Positions 17,067-63,599 of a DNA stretch of 64,000 bases are shown piece after piece (positions within the stretch are counted from its first letter, which is position 1; every line of letters starts with the position of its first letter). Origin of the DNA: Escherichia phage TH09; sequence record MT446387.1, one strand, 5' to 3'. The notes below the pieces were generated by a model. That model had not been told where the DNA came from. It ran no database searches and worked only from the letters and a program-made list of their open reading frames with translations. The translations under genes and the position numbers were made by a program.

Positions 17067-18269
17067 ATGAAAGTATGTATTTTTATGGCTCGAGGTCTTG
17101 AAGGTTGTGGTGTAACAAAATTCTCACTCGAGCAACGTGATTGGTTTATTAAAAATGGTCATGAAGTAACTTTGGTTTATGCTAAAGATAAATCATTTAC
17201 TCGTAATTGCGCGCATGATTATAAATCATTTTCAATTCCGGTTTTATTGGCAAAAGAATATGATAAAACACTTAAGCTGGTAAATGATTGTGATATTCTA
17301 ATTATCAATTCGGTTCCTGCTACTTCGGTTGAAGAAGACACGATTAATAACTATAAAAAAATTATTGATAACATTAAACCTTCTGTTCGTGTTGTAGTTT
17401 ATCAACATGACCATTCTTCTCTTTCTTTGCGTCGAAATTTGGGATTAGAAGAAACTGTTCGTCGAGCTGATGTTATTTTTAGCCATTCTGATAATGGTGA
17501 TTTTAATAAAGTTCTGATGAAAGAGTGGTATCCTGAAACAGTTTCTCTGTTTGATGATATTGAAGAAGCGCCGACAGTATATAACTTTCAGCCTCCGATG
17601 GATATTGCGAAGGTTCGATCAACCTACTGGAAAGATGTTTCTGAAATTAACATGAATATCAACCGTTGGATTGGTCGTACTACTACATGGAAAGGTTTTT
17701 ATCAGATGTTTGATTTTCATGAAAAACATCTTAAACCTGCAGGACTAAGTACTATTATGGAAGGTCTGGAACGTTCTCCAGCGTTTATTCCTATTAAAGA
17801 AAAAGGAATTCCATACGAGTATTATCGTCTTCATCAAGTAGACCAAATTAAAATTGCTCCTAATTTGCCAACGCAAATTCTTGACCGTTATGTAAATAGC
17901 GAAATGCTTGAACGCATGAGTAAATCCGGTTTTGGTTATCAGTTGAGTAAGTTGGATAAAAAATATCTACAACGTTCTTTAGAATATACTCATCTCGAGC
18001 TTGGTGCATGTGGAACAATTCCGGTATTTTGGAAATCTACTGGCGAAAATTTAAAATTCCGTGTTGATAATAATCCTTTGACCTCGCATGATAGCGGTAT
18101 CATTTGGTTTGATGAAAATGACATGGAATCAACATTTGAACATATTAAAGAACTGTCATCTGACCGAGCTCTTTATGACCGTGAGCGAGAAAAAGCATAT
18201 GAATTTTTGTATCAGCATCAAGATTCAAGCTTCTGCTTTAAAGAACAGTTTGACATTATTACAAAATAA
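17067..18269 (+). CDS. a-gt: DNA alpha-glucosyltransferase
   Basis: 400 aa; recognised as T4 a-gt. Confidence 0.95.
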   Translation: MKVCIFMARGLEGCGVTKFSLEQRDWFIKNGHEVTLVYAKDKSFTRNCAHDYKSFSIPVLLAKEYDKTLKLVNDCDILIINSVPATSVEEDTINNYKKIIDNIKPSVRVVVYQHDHSSLSLRRNLGLEETVRRADVIFSHSDNGDFNKVLMKEWYPETVSLFDDIEEAPTVYNFQPPMDIAKVRSTYWKDVSEINMNINRWIGRTTTWKGFYQMFDFHEKHLKPAGLSTIMEGLERSPAFIPIKEKGIPYEYYRLHQVDQIKIAPNLPTQILDRYVNSEMLERMSKSGFGYQLSKLDKKYLQRSLEYTHLELGACGTIPVFWKSTGENLKFRVDNNPLTSHDSGIIWFDENDMESTFEHIKELSSDRALYDREREKAYEFLYQHQDSSFCFKEQFDIITK

Positions 18270-28515: not shown

Positions 28516-28767
28516 ATGGAAACTTTAGTAGCAGGTTCAATTTTTATGGTTTTAGTTTCAGGTGTGTTGGCTATTATTATATACATGCTTCCATGGTTTA
28601 TCGCCTTGATGCGTGGGTCAAAATCGACAGTAGGAATCTTTTTCACATCTTTACTGTTTAACTGGTCAATTATTGGTTGGTTTATTACATTTATTTGGTC
28701 AATTGCGGGTGAAACTAAAAAGTCTGCACAGCCAAATCAGGTAATTATCATCAGAGAGAAGGAATGA
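28516..28767 (+). CDS. imm: superinfection immunity protein Imm
   Basis: 83 aa, two TM segments, directly upstream of gene 42. Confidence 0.65.
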   Translation: METLVAGSIFMVLVSGVLAIIIYMLPWFIALMRGSKSTVGIFFTSLLFNWSIIGWFITFIWSIAGETKKSAQPNQVIIIREKE

Positions 28768-28913
28768 AAAGCAAAATTATAACAGTGTTGCTTTTAATCT
28801 TGATGATTATAATAAGTATATACTATAGTGTAACGGTTCCTCTTATGATTCCAACTATTATTTTAGGTTGGAGCTTATTACTGTTACAAGTTAAATATGA
28901 ATGTATCAATTGA
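28764..28913 (+). CDS. small membrane protein
   Basis: 49-codon hydrophobic ORF; ATGA overlap with imm stop. Confidence 0.35.
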   Translation: MKSKIITVLLLILMIIISIYYSVTVPLMIPTIILGWSLLLLQVKYECIN

Positions 28914-28920
28914 GGTTTAA

Positions 28921-29661
28921 ATGATTAGTGACTCTATGACAGTTGAAGAAATCCGTCTTCATTTGGGGCTTGCATTAAAAGAAAAAGATTTCGTAGTTGA
29001 TAAAACTGGTGTTAAAACTATTGAAATTATTGGCGCATCATTTATAGCAGATGAACCGTTTATTTTTGGCGCTCTTAATGATGAATACATTCAGCGTGAA
29101 CTTGAATGGTATAAATCTAAGAGCTTGTTTGTTAAAGATATTCCAGGTGAAACACCAAAGATTTGGCAGCAGGTAGCATCTTCTAAAGGCGAAATTAACT
29201 CGAATTACGGTTGGGCTATTTGGTCAGAAGATAACTATGCCCAGTATGATATGTGTTTAGCTGAACTTGGTCAAAATCCTGATTCTCGACGTGGTATCAT
29301 GATTTATACTCGTCCATCTATGCAGTTTGACTATAATAAAGATGGTATGTCAGATTTCATGTGTACGAATACAGTACAGTACCTGATTCGTGATAAGAAA
29401 GTCAATGCAGTAGTAAGCATGCGCTCAAATGATGTGGTCTTCGGATTCCGTAATGATTATGCATGGCAAAAATACGTATTAGATAAATTAGTATCTGATT
29501 TGAATGCCGGCGATTCAACTCGTCAGTATAAAGCAGGTTCTATTATATGGAATGTTGGAAGTCTTCATGTATATTCTCGTCATTTTTACTTGGTTGATCA
29601 TTGGTGGAATACTGGCGAAACTCATATTGTGAAAAAAGACTATAAAGGTGAGTGGAAATGA
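28921..29661 (+). CDS. 42: dCMP hydroxymethylase gp42
   Basis: 246 aa; recognised as T4 gp42. Confidence 0.95.
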   Translation: MISDSMTVEEIRLHLGLALKEKDFVVDKTGVKTIEIIGASFIADEPFIFGALNDEYIQRELEWYKSKSLFVKDIPGETPKIWQQVASSKGEINSNYGWAIWSEDNYAQYDMCLAELGQNPDSRRGIMIYTRPSMQFDYNKDGMSDFMCTNTVQYLIRDKKVNAVVSMRSNDVVFGFRNDYAWQKYVLDKLVSDLNAGDSTRQYKAGSIIWNVGSLHVYSRHFYLVDHWWNTGETHIVKKDYKGEWK

Positions 29662-30500
29662 TTCAATTCGTAATTCCGAGCTATCAGCGTGTTGGGGCAG
29701 TTTCTGCCCTTGATATGTTTCCGACTGATTATGAACCACATATTGTAGTGCGTGAACATGAAGAAAAAGCTTATCATGACGCTTATGGGTCTAGAGCTAA
29801 AATTATAGCTATTCCTGATGATGTAAACGGAATTGCCGGTACTCGTAAAGCAATTACTGATATGTATGCAGGTCAACGAATTTGGATGATTGACGATGAT
29901 ACTACTATTCGTATGAGTTCAATGCGAAAAAGAGATGATCGTCGTTGTGTGGATAAAGTCAATCAATTAACCCGTGAACAGTTCTATGAATTGATTCAAT
30001 ACGTTGAAGATGCTATGGATTGCGGGTATTATCACGGTCATGCTCGTCTACCTATTTTTAAAATTACTTCATCTTGGGGTAATTATCGTGAAAATTCATA
30101 TGGATTCACGAATACATGGTATGACCTCGGAAAACTTACGACAGAACAAATTGGGTATGGAAAAATTGATTTGTGCGAAGATATGTATGCATTTCTCAAT
30201 TTAATTAATCAAGGTTATCCGCATTTGGCCTTGTTCAAATATCTGGTTGTATCTGGAAAAGCACAAGCTCCTGGCGGGTGCAGTTCAATTCGCAGTAATT
30301 CTAAACATAATAGAGCGCTTGAGCAGATCAATAGAGAGTTTCCAGAGCAAGCTCGTTGGAAAACTTCTAATATTGAAAAACGAAAATCGTTGGGTGAAGA
30401 AGACGAGCCATTAAAGGTTCTTCGTATGTGTGTTTCACGTAAAGAAAAATCAGAAGCATTTCATAAGTTTAATGCTATTCATCCAATAGCAGTTGATTAA
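29658..30500 (+). CDS. putative DNA glycosyltransferase at the beta-gt locus (not T4 beta-gt type)
   Basis: 280 aa from ATG 29658; DxD-like WMIDDDTT; sits between 42 and uvsX. Confidence 0.55.
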   Translation: MIQFVIPSYQRVGAVSALDMFPTDYEPHIVVREHEEKAYHDAYGSRAKIIAIPDDVNGIAGTRKAITDMYAGQRIWMIDDDTTIRMSSMRKRDDRRCVDKVNQLTREQFYELIQYVEDAMDCGYYHGHARLPIFKITSSWGNYRENSYGFTNTWYDLGKLTTEQIGYGKIDLCEDMYAFLNLINQGYPHLALFKYLVVSGKAQAPGGCSSIRSNSKHNRALEQINREFPEQARWKTSNIEKRKSLGEEDEPLKVLRMCVSRKEKSEAFHKFNAIHPIAVD

Positions 30501-30577
30501 TGCCTAAATTTATTGTGTTATAATTACTCTATCTTTAACCAGTGAGGAAAATATAATGATGCCTATGGAAAAAATGA

Positions 30578-31759
30578 ATGTCTATTGCAGATTTAAAATC
30601 CCGTTTGATTAAAGCTTCCACTTCTAAAATGACTGCTGAACTGACTACATCTAAATTCTTTAATGAAAAGGATGTAATCCGTACAAAAATCCCAATGCTT
30701 AATATTGCTATTTCTGGCGCGATTGATGGCGGTATGCAGTCTGGTTTAACTATTTTCGCAGGGCCTTCTAAACACTTTAAATCAAATATGTCTTTAACTA
30801 TGGTTGCGGCATATTTGAACAAATATCCTGACGCAGTTTGTCTATTCTATGATAGCGAATTTGGTATTACTCCAGCTTATTTGCGATCCATGGGAGTTGA
30901 CCCGGAACGAGTAATTCATACGCCAATTCAGTCAGTTGAACAGCTGAAAATTGATATGGTGAACCAACTTGAAGCTATTGAGCGTGGTGAAAAGGTTATT
31001 GTATTCATCGACTCAATTGGTAATATGGCTTCTAAGAAAGAAACTGAAGATGCCTTGAATGAAAAATCTGTGGCAGATATGACTCGTGCTAAATCACTGA
31101 AGTCATTATTCCGTATTGTTACTCCTTACTTTAGCATTAAAAATATTCCATGTGTTGCGGTTAACCATACAATTGAAACAATTGAAATGTTTAGTAAAAC
31201 CGTGATGACAGGTGGTACAGGCGTAATGTATTCGGCTGATACCGTATTCATTATCGGTAAACGTCAGATTAAAGATGGTTCTGATCTTCAGGGGTATCAA
31301 TTTGTTCTAAATGTAGAAAAATCTCGTACCGTTAAAGAAAAAAGTAAATTCTTTATTGATGTTAAATTTGACGGTGGTATCGATCCTTATTCTGGATTGT
31401 TAGATATGGCTCTAGAATTAGGATTTGTTGTAAAACCTAAAAATGGCTGGTATGCTCGTGAATTTCTTGACGAAGAAACTGGCGAGATGATTCGCGAAGA
31501 AAAATCTTGGCGTGCAAAAGATACCAACTGCACTACATTCTGGGGTCCTTTATTTAAGCATCAACCGTTCCGAGATGCTATTAAACGTGCTTATCAGTTA
31601 GGTGCTATTGATAGTAATGAAATTGTTGAAGCTGAAGTTGATGAATTAATTAACTCAAAAGTTGAAAAATTTAAATCTCCAGAAAGTAAAAGTAAATCAG
31701 CTGCTGATTTAGAAACTGACTTAGAACAGTTAAGTGATATGGAAGAATTTAATGAATAA
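30578..31759 (+). CDS. uvsX: RecA-like recombinase UvsX
   Basis: 393 aa; Walker A GPSKHFKS; recognised as T4 UvsX. Confidence 0.95.
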   Translation: MSIADLKSRLIKASTSKMTAELTTSKFFNEKDVIRTKIPMLNIAISGAIDGGMQSGLTIFAGPSKHFKSNMSLTMVAAYLNKYPDAVCLFYDSEFGITPAYLRSMGVDPERVIHTPIQSVEQLKIDMVNQLEAIERGEKVIVFIDSIGNMASKKETEDALNEKSVADMTRAKSLKSLFRIVTPYFSIKNIPCVAVNHTIETIEMFSKTVMTGGTGVMYSADTVFIIGKRQIKDGSDLQGYQFVLNVEKSRTVKEKSKFFIDVKFDGGIDPYSGLLDMALELGFVVKPKNGWYAREFLDEETGEMIREEKSWRAKDTNCTTFWGPLFKHQPFRDAIKRAYQLGAIDSNEIVEAEVDELINSKVEKFKSPESKSKSAADLETDLEQLSDMEEFNE

Positions 31760-35547: not shown

Positions 35548-36576
35548 ATGTCATCAATACCTTGGATTGATAATGAGTTTGCATACCGTGCATTAGCTCA
35601 TTTACCTAAATTCACACAAGTAAATAATAGTTCAACTTTTAAATTACGGTTTAGATGTCCTGTTTGTGGAGATTCAAAAACCGACCAGAATAAAGCTCGT
35701 GGATGGTATTATGGTGATAATAATGAAGGAAATATTCATTGTTATAACTGTAACTATCATGCACCAATCGGAATATATTTAAAGGAGTTTGAACCTGATT
35801 TATATCGTGAGTATATCTTTGAAATAAGAAAAGAAAAAGGTAAAAGTCGTCCAGTAGAAAAACCTAAAGAACTTCCTAAACAACCCGAAAAGAAAATAAT
35901 TAAATCTCTTCCGTCATGTGTTAGATTAGATAAACTGGCGGAAGACCATCCAATTATAAAATATGTAAAAGCTCGTTGTATTCCAAAGGATAAATGGAAA
36001 TATCTTTGGTTTACAACTGAATGGCCTAAATTAGTTAATAGCATAGCACCAGGAACATACAAAAAGGAAATTTCTGAGCCTCGTCTTGTTATTCCAATTT
36101 ATAATGCTAATGGAAAAGCTGAGTCTTTTCAAGGACGTGCATTAAAGAAAGATGCTCCTCAAAAATATATCACCATTAAAGCTTATCCTGAGGCAACAAA
36201 AATTTACGGTGTTGAACGAGTTAAAGATGGTGATGTATATGTTCTAGAAGGACCTATAGATTCACTTTTTATTGAAAATGGTATAGCTATTACGGGTGGT
36301 CAATTAGACCTAGAAGTTGTTCCATTTAAAGATAGACGAGTGTGGGTTTTAGATAATGAACCTCGTCACCCTGACACTATCAAACGAATGACTAAATTAG
36401 TTGATGCAGGAGAAAGGGTTATGTTTTGGGATAAATCTCCCTGGAAATCAAAAGATGTCAATGATATGATTAGAAAGGAAGGTGCAACCCCTGAACAAAT
36501 TATGAAATATATGAAAAATAATATTGCCCAGGGGTTGATGGCTAAAATGCGGCTATCTAAATATGCTAAGATTTAA
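35548..36576 (+). CDS. 61: DNA primase gp61
   Basis: 342 aa; zinc ribbon CPVCGDS...CYNC; recognised as T4 gp61. Confidence 0.95.
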   Translation: MSSIPWIDNEFAYRALAHLPKFTQVNNSSTFKLRFRCPVCGDSKTDQNKARGWYYGDNNEGNIHCYNCNYHAPIGIYLKEFEPDLYREYIFEIRKEKGKSRPVEKPKELPKQPEKKIIKSLPSCVRLDKLAEDHPIIKYVKARCIPKDKWKYLWFTTEWPKLVNSIAPGTYKKEISEPRLVIPIYNANGKAESFQGRALKKDAPQKYITIKAYPEATKIYGVERVKDGDVYVLEGPIDSLFIENGIAITGGQLDLEVVPFKDRRVWVLDNEPRHPDTIKRMTKLVDAGERVMFWDKSPWKSKDVNDMIRKEGATPEQIMKYMKNNIAQGLMAKMRLSKYAKI

Positions 36577-36773
36577 ATTAACCCAACTAAAGCAAATGCT
36601 AAATCTACGAATGTATCAAGAGTAACTACTGGAATATTAATACCATGTGCAATTGCAACAGGTGATAAAATAAAGTTCCAGAGTAAAATTCCTACCATAG
36701 CAGAAATAGTAAAAGCTATACGTTTTTTATTACCTTTTATGGCATTAACAAGTGCCATTAATTTTTGTACCAT
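36573..36773 (-). CDS. small membrane protein, antisense to surrounding operons
   Basis: 66 aa hydrophobic; GGAGGA SD 4 nt before the ATG on the - strand. Confidence 0.5.
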   Translation of the reverse strand: MVQKLMALVNAIKGNKKRIAFTISAMVGILLWNFILSPVAIAHGINIPVVTLDTFVDLAFALVGLI

Positions 36774-36783
36774 GTGTCCTCCT

Positions 36784-36812
36784 TATTGCTTTATATATTT
36801 ATTGTATAATTA
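36784..36812 (+). promoter_or_regulatory. putative MotA-dependent middle promoter for gene 56
   Basis: MotA box TTGCTTTA 36786-36793, TATAAT 36805-36810. Confidence 0.4.
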
Positions 36813-36844
36813 ATCTACTAACCCATGAATTGAAAGGAAAAATA

Positions 36845-37363
36845 ATGGCTTACTTTAATGAATGTTCACAACTGATCGAAGGCGCTGATAAAGCTCAAAA
36901 TGAATACTGGGATATTCTCGGTGATGAAAAAGACCCGCTGCAGGTTATGCTTGATATGCAGAAATCTCTGCAGGTTCGTTTAGCTAAAGATAAACCTGAA
37001 TATAACCGTCATCCTGATGATTTGGCTACTGCAGGTGAAGTTGTTGATTGGCTGCGCAATCAGAAAGATTATATTGATGATGAATTCCGCGAACTTCTGA
37101 CTTCTCTTGGTGGTATGAGCAATGGTGAAAAAGATGCATCTGCTGTATGGAAGCCATGGAAAGCTCAACATGGTGAACGTCGTGAAACTCTGATTACTGA
37201 TTTGTCTCCACAAGACCAGTTGGAAATTAAATTCGAAATGATTGATATTCTTCATTTCGTTCTGAACATGTTCCAAGGTCTCGGTCTTACGGCTGAAGAA
37301 ATCTTTAAACTTTATTATCTGAAAAATGCTGAAAACTTCGCTCGCCAAGACCGAGGTTACTAA
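36845..37363 (+). CDS. 56: dCTPase/dUTPase gp56
   Basis: 172 aa from ATG 36845 (GAAAGGAAAA SD); recognised as T4 gp56. Confidence 0.9.
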   Translation: MAYFNECSQLIEGADKAQNEYWDILGDEKDPLQVMLDMQKSLQVRLAKDKPEYNRHPDDLATAGEVVDWLRNQKDYIDDEFRELLTSLGGMSNGEKDASAVWKPWKAQHGERRETLITDLSPQDQLEIKFEMIDILHFVLNMFQGLGLTAEEIFKLYYLKNAENFARQDRGY

Positions 37364-38314: not shown

Positions 38315-38655
38315 TGTTTATCTTTAATTGGTTTAAAAATTTCTTTACAGATTTTTTCTCTACAACTCCCGGAGAAGGTGTAGTTCCTATTTCAAATGAC
38401 TACCTTCCTTTAACTGTAGTTGAATATGTTTATATGGGAGATGGAACAGTAGAAGCAGTTACTATGACTTATGAAGAAGCCCAAGAATATTATAAAAATC
38501 CTTGGCGTTGGTCAACACCTACTACATCATCTAATGCACAGAATACACAGTCTAGTTCTGATTCATATGACACCAATGTTCCTGTTCATGTATGGGCAGG
38601 TGATTCATGTGGAAGTTCTTGTGATTCTAGTTGTTCATCTACATCTTGTGATTGA
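38314..38655 (+). CDS. hypothetical protein with Cys/Ser-rich C-terminal tail
   Basis: 113 aa; C-terminus [18 protein letters not shown]. Confidence 0.5.
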
Positions 38656-38663
38656 GGAAAATT

Positions 38664-39149
38664 ATGGAAGCGATTTTGTTTGAAATGTATATTAGCAGTA
38701 ATAGCATGTCGTTTGCTAAAGATGTTCCAATTACTGTAGCCGTAGTGATTGATAAGGGTTATTGTAACCCTATGTATCTCGTAGAAAATTTCGTTTCAAT
38801 GCCAGTTCCAGAAGATGTTGAAATAAAACTTAAAAAGATCGGAATTATTGAAACTGTGCCAAATAGTCCGTTTAGAGCAATTGAAGCATTTACTAAATCC
38901 GAATACATTAATGTTAGCGCAGAACAATATAATGGTAATCCTTTATCTTTTTATTCGTACGATTCAGTATATGACTGGAAAATAAATGAAGGAAATAAAT
39001 TTATAATTGCGAGTGAAGATGCTTTATCATACTTTATTTATTATGTATGGAATAATTTAAATCCAAAATTGCTAAAAATTCATGAATTTGACGATGCTCC
39101 TACTATTGTTTTAGGTAAAACAAATGAAAGTTCTGAAGAAAATGCTTGA
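38664..39149 (+). CDS. hypothetical protein
   Basis: 161 aa from ATG 38664 (GAGGAAAATT SD). Confidence 0.5.
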
Positions 39150-39327: not shown

Positions 39328-39488
39328 GCAAAGATATGACGTTAGAAGAGGCCAAAGCAAAAGCAAATGAAGCAATGGATTTGCTTCTTAAAATTGGTAG
39401 TAAAATGATGGAAGAAAATGAGAAATATATCCAGGAAAACAAAATTCCTGATGGTCCATTAGTAGGCAAGAGGAAATCACATGATTGA
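39324..39488 (+). CDS. small hypothetical protein
   Basis: 54-codon ORF; ATGA overlap. Confidence 0.3.
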
Positions 39489-39951
39489 AGTAGCAAAACT
39501 GTATTCAATAGGATTTATGTCTAAAGAAGGTAAATCAGTAAATACACTTGATAAAAAATGCTCGTTAATTATTCCTTTAGCAGAAAATCCGGATATTTTA
39601 ATTAAAGATATAAAAGAAAGAAAATATCCAGAAAATGTTATTCTAATTATAAAGCATACTGAAGATATTTTGCAGAATACTGATTCACCGTTTTCTTCTT
39701 CCGAAGCTTTAACTATTAAAGGCTATAAAAGAGCTCATGAATATGGTCTTTTTGACATGTTTGAAGACGATAAAGTTAAATTAGCGAGTCAACCTTCTAA
39801 AAGTAAAACATTCATTATTGAAGATATTAAAGATATAAATGCATTTGTTAGGATGGTCTGGGCTCATTTTGATGTTGGACTACGCTGGAGAATGTCCGAA
39901 GAAGAAAGAAAGATTATTGAAGCTAATCGTCAATTTGGTTTTTATCGCTAG
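39481..39951 (+). CDS. hypothetical protein
   Basis: 156 aa. Confidence 0.5.
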
Positions 39952-57681: not shown

Positions 57682-59370
57682 ATGCAACTGAATAATCGCG
57701 ATTTAAAAAGTATCATTGATAATGAAGCATTGGCTTATGCTATGTACACGGTTGAAAATCGTGCTATTCCAAATATGATTGATGGATTTAAGCCAGTTCA
57801 ACGATTTGTTATTGCTCGAGCTCTTGATTTGGCACGAGGAAATAAAGATAAGTTTCACAAACTCGCTTCTATCGCAGGTGGTGTAGCGGACCTTGGATAT
57901 CATCATGGCGAAAACTCTGCACAAGACGCAGGTGCTTTGATGGCTAACACTTGGAATAATAACTTTCCTCTGTTAGATGGTCAAGGAAACTTCGGTTCTC
58001 GTACCGTTCAAAAAGCAGCGGCAAGTCGTTATATTTTTGCTCGTGTAAGTAAAAATTTCTATAACGTATATAAAGATACTGAGTATGCTCCGGTACATCA
58101 AGATAAAGAACACATTCCGCCTGCTTTCTATTTGCCTATTATTCCTACTGTTCTTCTTAATGGCGTTTCCGGTATTGCAACTGGTTATGCAACTTACATT
58201 CTTCCTCATAGCGTTTCTTCTGTCAAGAAAGCTGTATTACAAGCTCTTCAAGGAAAGAAAGTAACTAAACCGAAGGTAGAATTCCCAGAATTTCGTGGTG
58301 AAGTCGTTGAAATTGATGGGCAATATGAAATTCGTGGAACATATAAGTTTACTTCACGAACTCAAATGCATATCACTGAGATTCCGTATAAGTATGATCG
58401 TGAAACTTATGTGAGTAAAATCTTAGACCCACTTGAAGATAAAGGCTTCATTATACATCAAGATAAAGAACACATTCCGCCTGCCTTCTATTTGCCTATT
58501 ATTCCTACTGTTCTTCTTAATGGCGTTTCCGGTATTGCAACTGGTTATGCAACTTACATTCTTCCTCATAGCGTTTCTTCTGTCAAGAAAGCTGTATTAC
58601 AAGCTCTTCAAGGAAAGAAAGTAACTAAACCGAAGGTAGAATTCCCAGAATTTCGTGGTGAAGTCGTTGAAATTGATGGGCAATATGAAATTCGTGGAAC
58701 ATATAAGTTTACTTCACGAACTCAAATGCATATCACTGAGATTCCGTATAAGTATGATCGTGAAACTTATGTGAGTAAAATCTTAGACCCACTTGAAGAT
58801 AAAGGCTTCATTACATGGGATGATGCTTGTGGTGAGCACGGCTTCGGCTTTAAAGTTAAATTCCGTAAAGAATATTCTTTGAGCGATAATGAAGAAGAAC
58901 GCCATGCAAAAATTATGAAAGACTTCGGGTTGATTGAGCGTCGTTCTCAGAATATTACCGTCATTAATGAGAAAGGAAAACTACAAGTTTACGATAACGT
59001 AGTTGATTTAATTAAAGACTTCGTTGAAGTTCGTAAAACTTATGTCCAAAAGCGAATTGATAACAAAATCAAAGAAACTGAATCAGCATTTCGTTTAGCC
59101 TTTGCCAAGGCACATTTCATTAAGAAAGTGATTTCAGGTGAAATTGTTGTACAAGGTAAAACTCGCAAAGAACTGACTGAAGAACTTTCTAAAATTGATA
59201 TGTATTCTTCTTATGTTGATAAACTAGTTGGAATGAACATTTTTCATATGACTTCCGACGAAGCAAAGAAACTTGCTGAAGAAGCTAAAGCTAAAAAAGA
59301 AGAAAACGAATATTGGAAAACTACTGATGTAGTTACAGAATACACTAAAGATTTAGAGGAAATCAAATGA
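57682..59370 (+). CDS. 52: topoisomerase II medium subunit gp52 carrying an internal 120-aa tandem duplication
   Basis: 562 aa versus about 442 aa expected; residues HQDKEH...EDKGFI occur twice. Confidence 0.9.
   Translation: MQLNNRDLKSIIDNEALAYAMYTVENRAIPNMIDGFKPVQRFVIARALDLARGNKDKFHKLASIAGGVADLGYHHGENSAQDAGALMANTWNNNFPLLDGQGNFGSRTVQKAAASRYIFARVSKNFYNVYKDTEYAPVHQDKEHIPPAFYLPIIPTVLLNGVSGIATGYATYILPHSVSSVKKAVLQALQGKKVTKPKVEFPEFRGEVVEIDGQYEIRGTYKFTSRTQMHITEIPYKYDRETYVSKILDPLEDKGFIIHQDKEHIPPAFYLPIIPTVLLNGVSGIATGYATYILPHSVSSVKKAVLQALQGKKVTKPKVEFPEFRGEVVEIDGQYEIRGTYKFTSRTQMHITEIPYKYDRETYVSKILDPLEDKGFITWDDACGEHGFGFKVKFRKEYSLSDNEEERHAKIMKDFGLIERRSQNITVINEKGKLQVYDNVVDLIKDFVEVRKTYVQKRIDNKIKETESAFRLAFAKAHFIKKVISGEIVVQGKTRKELTEELSKIDMYSSYVDKLVGMNIFHMTSDEAKKLAEEAKAKKEENEYWKTTDVVTEYTKDLEEIK
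58094..58453 (+). repeat. 360-bp tandem repeat unit 1 inside gene 52
   Basis: 359/360 identical to unit 2. Confidence 0.95.
58454..58813 (+). repeat. 360-bp tandem repeat unit 2 inside gene 52
   Basis: Single difference 58485 C versus 58125 T, synonymous. Confidence 0.95.
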
Positions 59371-63044: not shown

Positions 63045-63052
63045 TATTTATA
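63045..63052 (-). promoter_or_regulatory. late promoter for t
   Basis: TATAAATA on the - strand overlapping the gene 38 stop, followed by GGAGG and the t start. Confidence 0.5.
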
Positions 63053-63599
63053 CGTAATGCTTGAATAAACGCTTATACCAAGGCTTCTGTTCTTTTTCAG
63101 GCCATTTAGGAAATTCACCACCTAAATGCTCATGCTTTTCTAAAAGAGCAAAGAACCGCTTAAGGTTTTTATAATAGAATTTTTCCTTTTTATTCGCGAC
63201 AGAAGCTTCAATCATATTATTTAAAACTTGGAATTCTTTGTATAATTCTTCAATTTTTCTATTGCGAATTAAAACGCGTTTATATGTTTCGTCTTCTTTC
63301 CAACCATCATCAGTCCATATATCAAATTCGCCGGGTTCATCAAAAGTTATACCAACCGGGCTTCCTATGTCAGTTATTAAGATTTCTTCTTTATTAAAAG
63401 TCCAAGCCCGTTTACCGCGATGGTCTTCTTCATAAATCCAATCCTGAATACGTTCATCAAATACAACTGCGTATCCTTCTTTAGGTTCTAAAGGTTTTTT
63501 AATTGTTGAATGAGCAGGAAGACCGAGACCTTTAACAGGTTTGTAATTTTCTTCTTTGTAAAATTCTTTAGTGTCAAAATAATAATGATAGATTTTCAT
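63048..63599 (-). CDS. 38: gp38, T4-type 183-aa tail fibre assembly protein
   Basis: 183 aa; recognised as T4 gp38. Confidence 0.9.
   Translation of the reverse strand: MKIYHYYFDTKEFYKEENYKPVKGLGLPAHSTIKKPLEPKEGYAVVFDERIQDWIYEEDHRGKRAWTFNKEEILITDIGSPVGITFDEPGEFDIWTDDGWKEDETYKRVLIRNRKIEELYKEFQVLNNMIEASVANKKEKFYYKNLKRFFALLEKHEHLGGEFPKWPEKEQKPWYKRLFKHYV

Follow-up and report, generated by a model that had tools for sequence, protein, structure and literature searches.

The window analysed here is a 64,000-nucleotide (64-kb) stretch of the genome of Escherichia phage TH09 (sequence record MT446387.1). Between gene 42 and uvsX it carries an open reading frame of 280 codons, as had been described in a sequence-only reading of the same DNA; the ORF listing and the PHROG matches of the two flanking genes agreed with that placement. 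The features of the locus, with the alpha-glucosyltransferase gene found elsewhere in the window, are the following.

17067-18269, plus strand: alpha-glucosyltransferase gene (a-gt), coding for 400 residues; full-length match to PHROG 2888 'alpha-glucosyltransferase' (E = 8.6e-222).
28921-29661, plus strand: gene 42, coding for dCMP hydroxymethylase of the thymidylate-synthase family; match to PHROG 160 (E = 6.6e-67).
29658-30500, plus strand, stop codon included: the ggt gene (ba-gt, TAGT gene), from the ORF, Pfam PF20691, PHROG 842 and the match to phage T2.
29658-29661, plus strand: ATGA overlap between the start codon of ggt and the TGA stop codon of gene 42, read directly from the sequence.
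29883-29906, plus strand: WMIDDDTT motif, residues 76-83 in the translation, with D79-D81 at 29892-29900.
30501-30577, no strand assigned: spacer of 77 nt between ggt and uvsX, read from the sequence; T4 carries segA at the same place.
30578-31759, plus strand: uvsX recombinase gene, the downstream flank of ggt; match to PHROG 97 (E = 7.4e-110).

Translation of ggt from the ATG at position 29658 gives the 280-residue protein, and the ORF listing also shows an in-frame GTG at 29652, two codons 5', from which the product would have 282 residues. The ATG is directly preceded by the sequence GGTGAG. The gene starts four bases inside the end of gene 42, so that its expression is probably linked to that of the early nucleotide-metabolism genes; the ATGA overlap suggests, as far as it can be read from the DNA, translational coupling and co-transcription of ggt with gene 42. 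Gene 42 of the window is syntenic with gene 42 of T4, T2 and T6, and the order gene 42-ggt-uvsX is common to the window, T2 and T6. The DNA polymerase gene and the genes of the imm region are located further 5' of gene 42, and homologs of genes 40 and 41 are found 3' of uvsX. The order of the T2 locus (43, imm region, 42, ggt, uvsX, 40, 41) is the same as that of the window, and the four-base overlap of ggt with gene 42 is annotated in T2 as well.

The region 28700-30700 was also scanned for promoters and terminators, and the site counts were not above those of shuffled sequence. One terminator-like site was found in this region against 0.9 expected by chance. At this site a hairpin rich in G and C (GGGGCAG TTT CTGCCCT) lies at 29694-29710 on the plus strand, 36 nt inside the ggt open reading frame, with a T-rich tract after it.

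According to the T4 map, the same interval is occupied in T4 by the 351-residue b-gt, as the earlier reading had stated, and by the homing endonuclease gene segA. The BLASTP comparison of the ggt protein with T4 b-gt gave only chance fragments, the best at E = 2.2, and tblastn searches of the whole 64-kb window with T4 b-gt and T4 SegA returned nothing better than E = 1.4. Since neither BLASTP nor tblastn found any similarity, a beta-gt of the T4 type, even in diverged form, was ruled out. The earlier observations that the protein does not resemble T4 beta-gt and that no segA-like gene stands beside uvsX were thus both borne out, only the 77-nt spacer lying between ggt and uvsX. T4 b-gt and ggt of the window are syntenic, both lying between gene 42 and uvsX, and from the literature both types of enzyme use UDP-glucose as donor and attach the glucose in beta linkage to modified phage DNA. 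They differ in the acceptor, which is bare hmC for T4 b-gt and alpha-glucosyl-hmC for the ggt type, and segA accompanies b-gt in T4 whereas the window is without it.

The ggt protein was identical to the phage T2 protein at 276 of 280 positions (98.6%) and about 99% identical to the counterparts in T6 (AP018814) and teqskov. It matched PHROG 842 'beta-glucosyl-HMC-alpha-glucosyltransferase' over its full length (E = 1.9e-88). In the Pfam scan of the protein, PF20691 (TAGT, TET-associated glycosyltransferase) was the only family matched, scoring 41.8 bits where the curated cut-off is 27.5 (E = 1.5e-10), and the alignment placed residues 3-207 on profile positions 2-205 of 205. The alpha-gt (17067-18269) and gp42 (28921-29661) co-occur with ggt in the window. 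The T2/T6-type beta-glucosyl-HMC-alpha-glucosyltransferase, which was the identity preferred in the sequence-only reading, is upheld by the near-identity to T2, the shared synteny, the PHROG and Pfam assignments and the presence of alpha-gt. We conclude that the open reading frame is very probably the Tequatrovirus ggt (ba-gt), a PF20691 member orthologous to the T2/T6 enzyme, whose product would add the second glucose to give gentiobiosyl-hmC.

The ggt gene of T2 and T6, also called ba-gt or g-gt, likewise codes for 280 residues, sits in the gene 42-uvsX slot, carries the DDD motif and has an alpha-gt partner. Four residues distinguish the T2 protein from that of the window, R11, H40, A51 and P251 being replaced in T2 by His, Tyr, Thr and Ser, respectively. 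Earlier work had already described the gene, the place where it lies, the family to which it belongs and what its enzyme makes, and none of the four is new; Winkler and Rueger reportedly cloned the T2 and T6 genes and determined their sequences in 1993.

We investigated the WMIDDDTT motif in a family alignment of nine homologs, the most distant of them at 48% identity. The motif had been noticed in the sequence-only reading, and the translation confirmed it at residues 76-83. The alignment showed 93 invariant positions, including D79, D80 and D81, and the N-terminal block IQFVIPSY-x-R was also among the invariant positions. An AlphaFold model built on the nine-sequence alignment had a mean pLDDT of 75 and a pTM of 0.75, with pLDDT below 50 at residues 129-139. 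The predicted strand formed by residues 74-79 ends at D79 and is followed by D80 and D81, and D79-D81, just after this beta-strand of the model, probably form the DxD-type metal/UDP-sugar binding motif. The best Foldseek matches in the PDB were GT-A/GT2 enzymes (RmlT, TarS, SpsA, chondroitin polymerase, GtrB and Dol-P-Man synthase), with probabilities of 0.85-1.0 and TM-scores of only 0.2-0.42. Nucleotidyltransferases, which share the GT-A-type fold, were matched as well. With moderate confidence, the model points to a GT-A-like (GT2-like) DxD glycosyltransferase fold, in contrast with T4 b-gt, the fold of which is GT-B. A sequence search of the PDB found no solved structure of a TAGT relative and returned only chance matches at E > 1, so that the inverting, metal-dependent mechanism is proposed from the fold class and the product stereochemistry. 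Inverting enzymes are well established among GT-A glycosyltransferases, and the UDP-alpha-glucose donor together with the beta-1,6 product of T2 and T6 would fit an inverting GT2-like DxD enzyme.

The chemistry and genetics of the pathway come from the literature on T2, T6 and related phages. In the proposed pathway, gp42 would make hm-dCMP, through which the phage DNA would contain hmC, and the alpha-gt encoded at 17067-18269 would then put an alpha-linked glucose on the hmC. The ggt enzyme, predicted to be GT-A-like with a DxD motif and presumably metal-dependent and inverting, would take a second glucose from UDP-glucose and attach it in a beta-1,6 linkage to the 6-OH of the first one, yielding gentiobiosyl-hmC. 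As gp42 and a full-length alpha-gt are both encoded, the three-step pathway would be complete inside the window. The PF20691 TAGT of T2 and T6 has been described to glucosylate alpha-glucosylated cytosine to 5-gentiobiosyl-methylcytosine (PMC13216743). HPLC/MS analysis of ten Tequatrovirus isolates showed 5-hmdC, alpha-glucosyl-hmdC and alpha-gentiobiosyl-hmdC, with no beta-glucosyl-hmdC, and these isolates encode, like T6, an alpha-GT and a TAGT syntenic with T4 beta-GT (PMC13390438, AEM 2026). The genome of T6 (delta g-gt) has been described as about 75% alpha-glucosyl-5hmC, and BapA freed glucose from this DNA, whereas wild-type T6 DNA, with most of its hmC gentiobiosylated, released none (bioRxiv 10.64898/2026.02.25.707755).

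The same fold and family could in principle serve another specificity, the enzyme transferring a sugar other than glucose or beta-monoglucosylating bare hmC in replacement of T4 beta-gt. The TAGT homologs of T4-like phages of Klebsiella, Enterobacter, Salmonella and Citrobacter are about 64% identical to the window protein and share with it the Pfam family, the gene 42 neighbour and the invariant motifs. In phages of the Moon, S16, STML-198 and Merlin type, the TAGT adjoins a beta-gt homolog and is without alpha-gt, whereas the window ggt pairs with alpha-gt. A beta-gt about 50% identical to that of T4 adjoins the ~64% identical TAGT in Citrobacter phage Moon (NC_027331) and Salmonella phage S16 (NC_020416), and the table of PMC6024577 lists no alpha-gt for Moon, STML-198, Merlin, PS2 and STP4-a. 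From this gene pairing, the TAGT of the Moon/S16/STML-198/Merlin-type phages probably extends a beta-linked first glucose, with beta-glucosyl-hmC as acceptor. The family evidently takes more than one acceptor, since these ~64% identical homologs adjoin beta-gt without alpha-gt (PMC6024577), and distant TAGTs even exist with neither an alpha- nor a beta-GT (PMC13216743). Against a different specificity in the window stand the identity of its protein to the T2 (98.6%) and T6 (~99%) enzymes, the presence of alpha-gt, and the lack of beta-glucosyl-hmdC in Tequatrovirus phages with the alpha-GT and TAGT pair (PMC13390438). With 98.6% of the residues shared with the T2 protein, the 'different sugar specificity' that the sequence-only reading had kept as an alternative is very unlikely, and the preferred identity remains the T2/T6-type enzyme acting on alpha-glucosyl-hmC.

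We then considered how far this T2/T6-type enzyme would diglucosylate the DNA. Gentiobiosyl-hmC was reported at 72% in T6 and 5% in T2, the enzymes being homologous ba-gt (PMC6024577). The T2 and T6 ggt enzymes are about 98% identical to each other, and yet their product differs 14-fold, so that the extent of diglucosylation is not predictable from the sequence. The allele of the window is intact and full length, and it keeps Q10, R11, the DDD motif and all other invariant residues. It differs from close relatives at positions 40 and 51, both variable in the nine-sequence alignment. We infer that this allele would be active, since every family-invariant residue is retained.

The two T6 reference sequences each carry a different lesion in ggt. 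In MH550421 (locus L003, 4138-4980) a stop is present at codon 10 and the gene is annotated from Met20 as coding for 261 residues, and in AP018814/NC_054907 (locus L004, 101-940) one Asp of the DDD motif is lost in frame, leaving 279 residues. These lesions may be laboratory-stock changes or sequencing errors.

A weakly active or inactive ggt in the window would leave the DNA essentially alpha-monoglucosylated, as in T2 or with even less of the second glucose. This reading draws on the T2 gene, which gives about 5% gentiobiosyl-hmC in spite of its 98.6% identity (PMC6024577), and on the lesions of MH550421 and AP018814, which indicate that ggt is dispensable in the laboratory. The intact, full-length gene with all invariant residues argues against it, as does the location of the differences at positions 40 and 51, which are variable sites of the alignment. 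Environmental Tequatrovirus with the same gene pair, moreover, had about two fifths to two thirds of their cytosines gentiobiosylated (PMC13390438). We therefore give a weak allele only a slim chance and retain an active ggt enzyme as the preferred reading.

Residue 11 was His in all eight T2 records (for example T2 PV648363, locus L002, 3001-3843) and Arg in the window, in T6, in teqskov and in all aligned homologs down to 48% identity. It is conceivable, and in our opinion rather doubtful, that R11H is a hypomorphic change in T2 that would account for the difference between T2 (~5%) and T6 or wild isolates (~40-72%), in which case the phage of the window would be heavily diglucosylated. If true, this idea would concern T2 more than the window phage.

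The position between gene 61 and gene 56 was searched for a dam gene, this being where dam sits on the T4 map. No dam gene was found there in the window, in which 175 nt separate the gene 61 primase homolog (35548-36576, assigned by size and position) from the gene 56 dCTPase (36752-37363). Among the isolates of PMC13390438, it was the ones lacking a Dam-like gene in the region examined that had about two thirds gentiobiosyl-hmC. The relation between the absence of dam and the gentiobiosyl-hmC level is a correlation in a small set only, and we give it little weight.

The distribution of ggt among phages was investigated in a collection of 50,697 phage records, of which a tblastn search with the protein matched 472 at an identity of at least 90% and a further 203 at 60-80%. 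At the same 90% threshold, the records with T4 b-gt numbered only 29. A word-index protein search with the ggt protein gave just 10 clusters, each of them from T4-like phages. The 1.7-kb stretch around ggt was at least 97.8% identical in the 30 best-matching records of Escherichia, Shigella and Yersinia T4-like phages, with Escherichia phage JLBYU31 as the closest match (99.9%), and at least 95% identical in 375 records, including RB51, RB68 and wV7. In the literature, most phages pair an alpha-GT or a beta-GT with a TAGT: of the 753 phages that have a T-even-type GT, the great majority combine alpha-GT or beta-GT with TAGT, and only six, including T4, have alpha-GT with beta-GT (PMC13216743). 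The alpha-gt and TAGT pair is the commonest arrangement in T4-like coliphages (Tequatrovirus), and the T4 beta-gt is the exception.

These counts bear on the view of the sequence-only reading that the genome appears mosaic at this locus, next to an adjacent T4-type gp38.

63048-63599, minus strand: gp38, 183 residues, identical to T4 gp38 at 179 of 183 positions.

The T4 type and the 183-residue length of gp38 were confirmed by this match, but the gene is not adjacent to ggt, being about 32.5 kb away. A noteworthy mosaic at the ggt locus was not supported, since the T2-type gene is the majority state (472 records against 29), and mosaicism as a notable feature of the locus was rejected on these counts, with which PMC13216743 agrees. 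The genome background of T2 and T6 does differ from that of the window, which has the T4-type gp38. That a T4-type gp38 and a T2-type ggt occur in one genome is the usual mosaicism of T-even phages, for which no particular explanation is required.

Two other observations were made in the window. The gene 52 homolog (topoisomerase II medium subunit; 57682-59370, plus strand) contains an in-frame tandem duplication of 360 bp, giving a product of 562 residues. The repeat copies, at 58094-58453 and 58454-58813, are identical at 359 of 360 positions, and gene 52 measures 1329 bp, without the duplication, in all of the eight best-matching phage records; the duplication could be a real recent event or an assembly artefact. 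The plus-strand open reading frames at 38652-39149 (165 residues) and 39481-39951 (156 residues) both matched PHROG 1234 'Mrh transcription modulator under heat shock', and these two neighbours may be paralogs.

As a discovery the identification of ggt carries little weight, and its practical value is that of an annotation. The annotation predicts a phage DNA that would contain hmC, alpha-glucosyl-hmC and gentiobiosyl-hmC and would be without beta-monoglucosyl-hmC. Brig1 acts on alpha-glucosylated cytosine, and GmrSD targets both stereoisomers of glucosyl-hmC as well as gentiobiosyl-hmC (PMC13216743). BapA, for its part, freed no glucose from the largely gentiobiosylated T6 DNA (bioRxiv 10.64898/2026.02.25.707755). 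According to the papers cited here, the sugar pattern predicted for this phage would bear on sensitivity to several defence systems.
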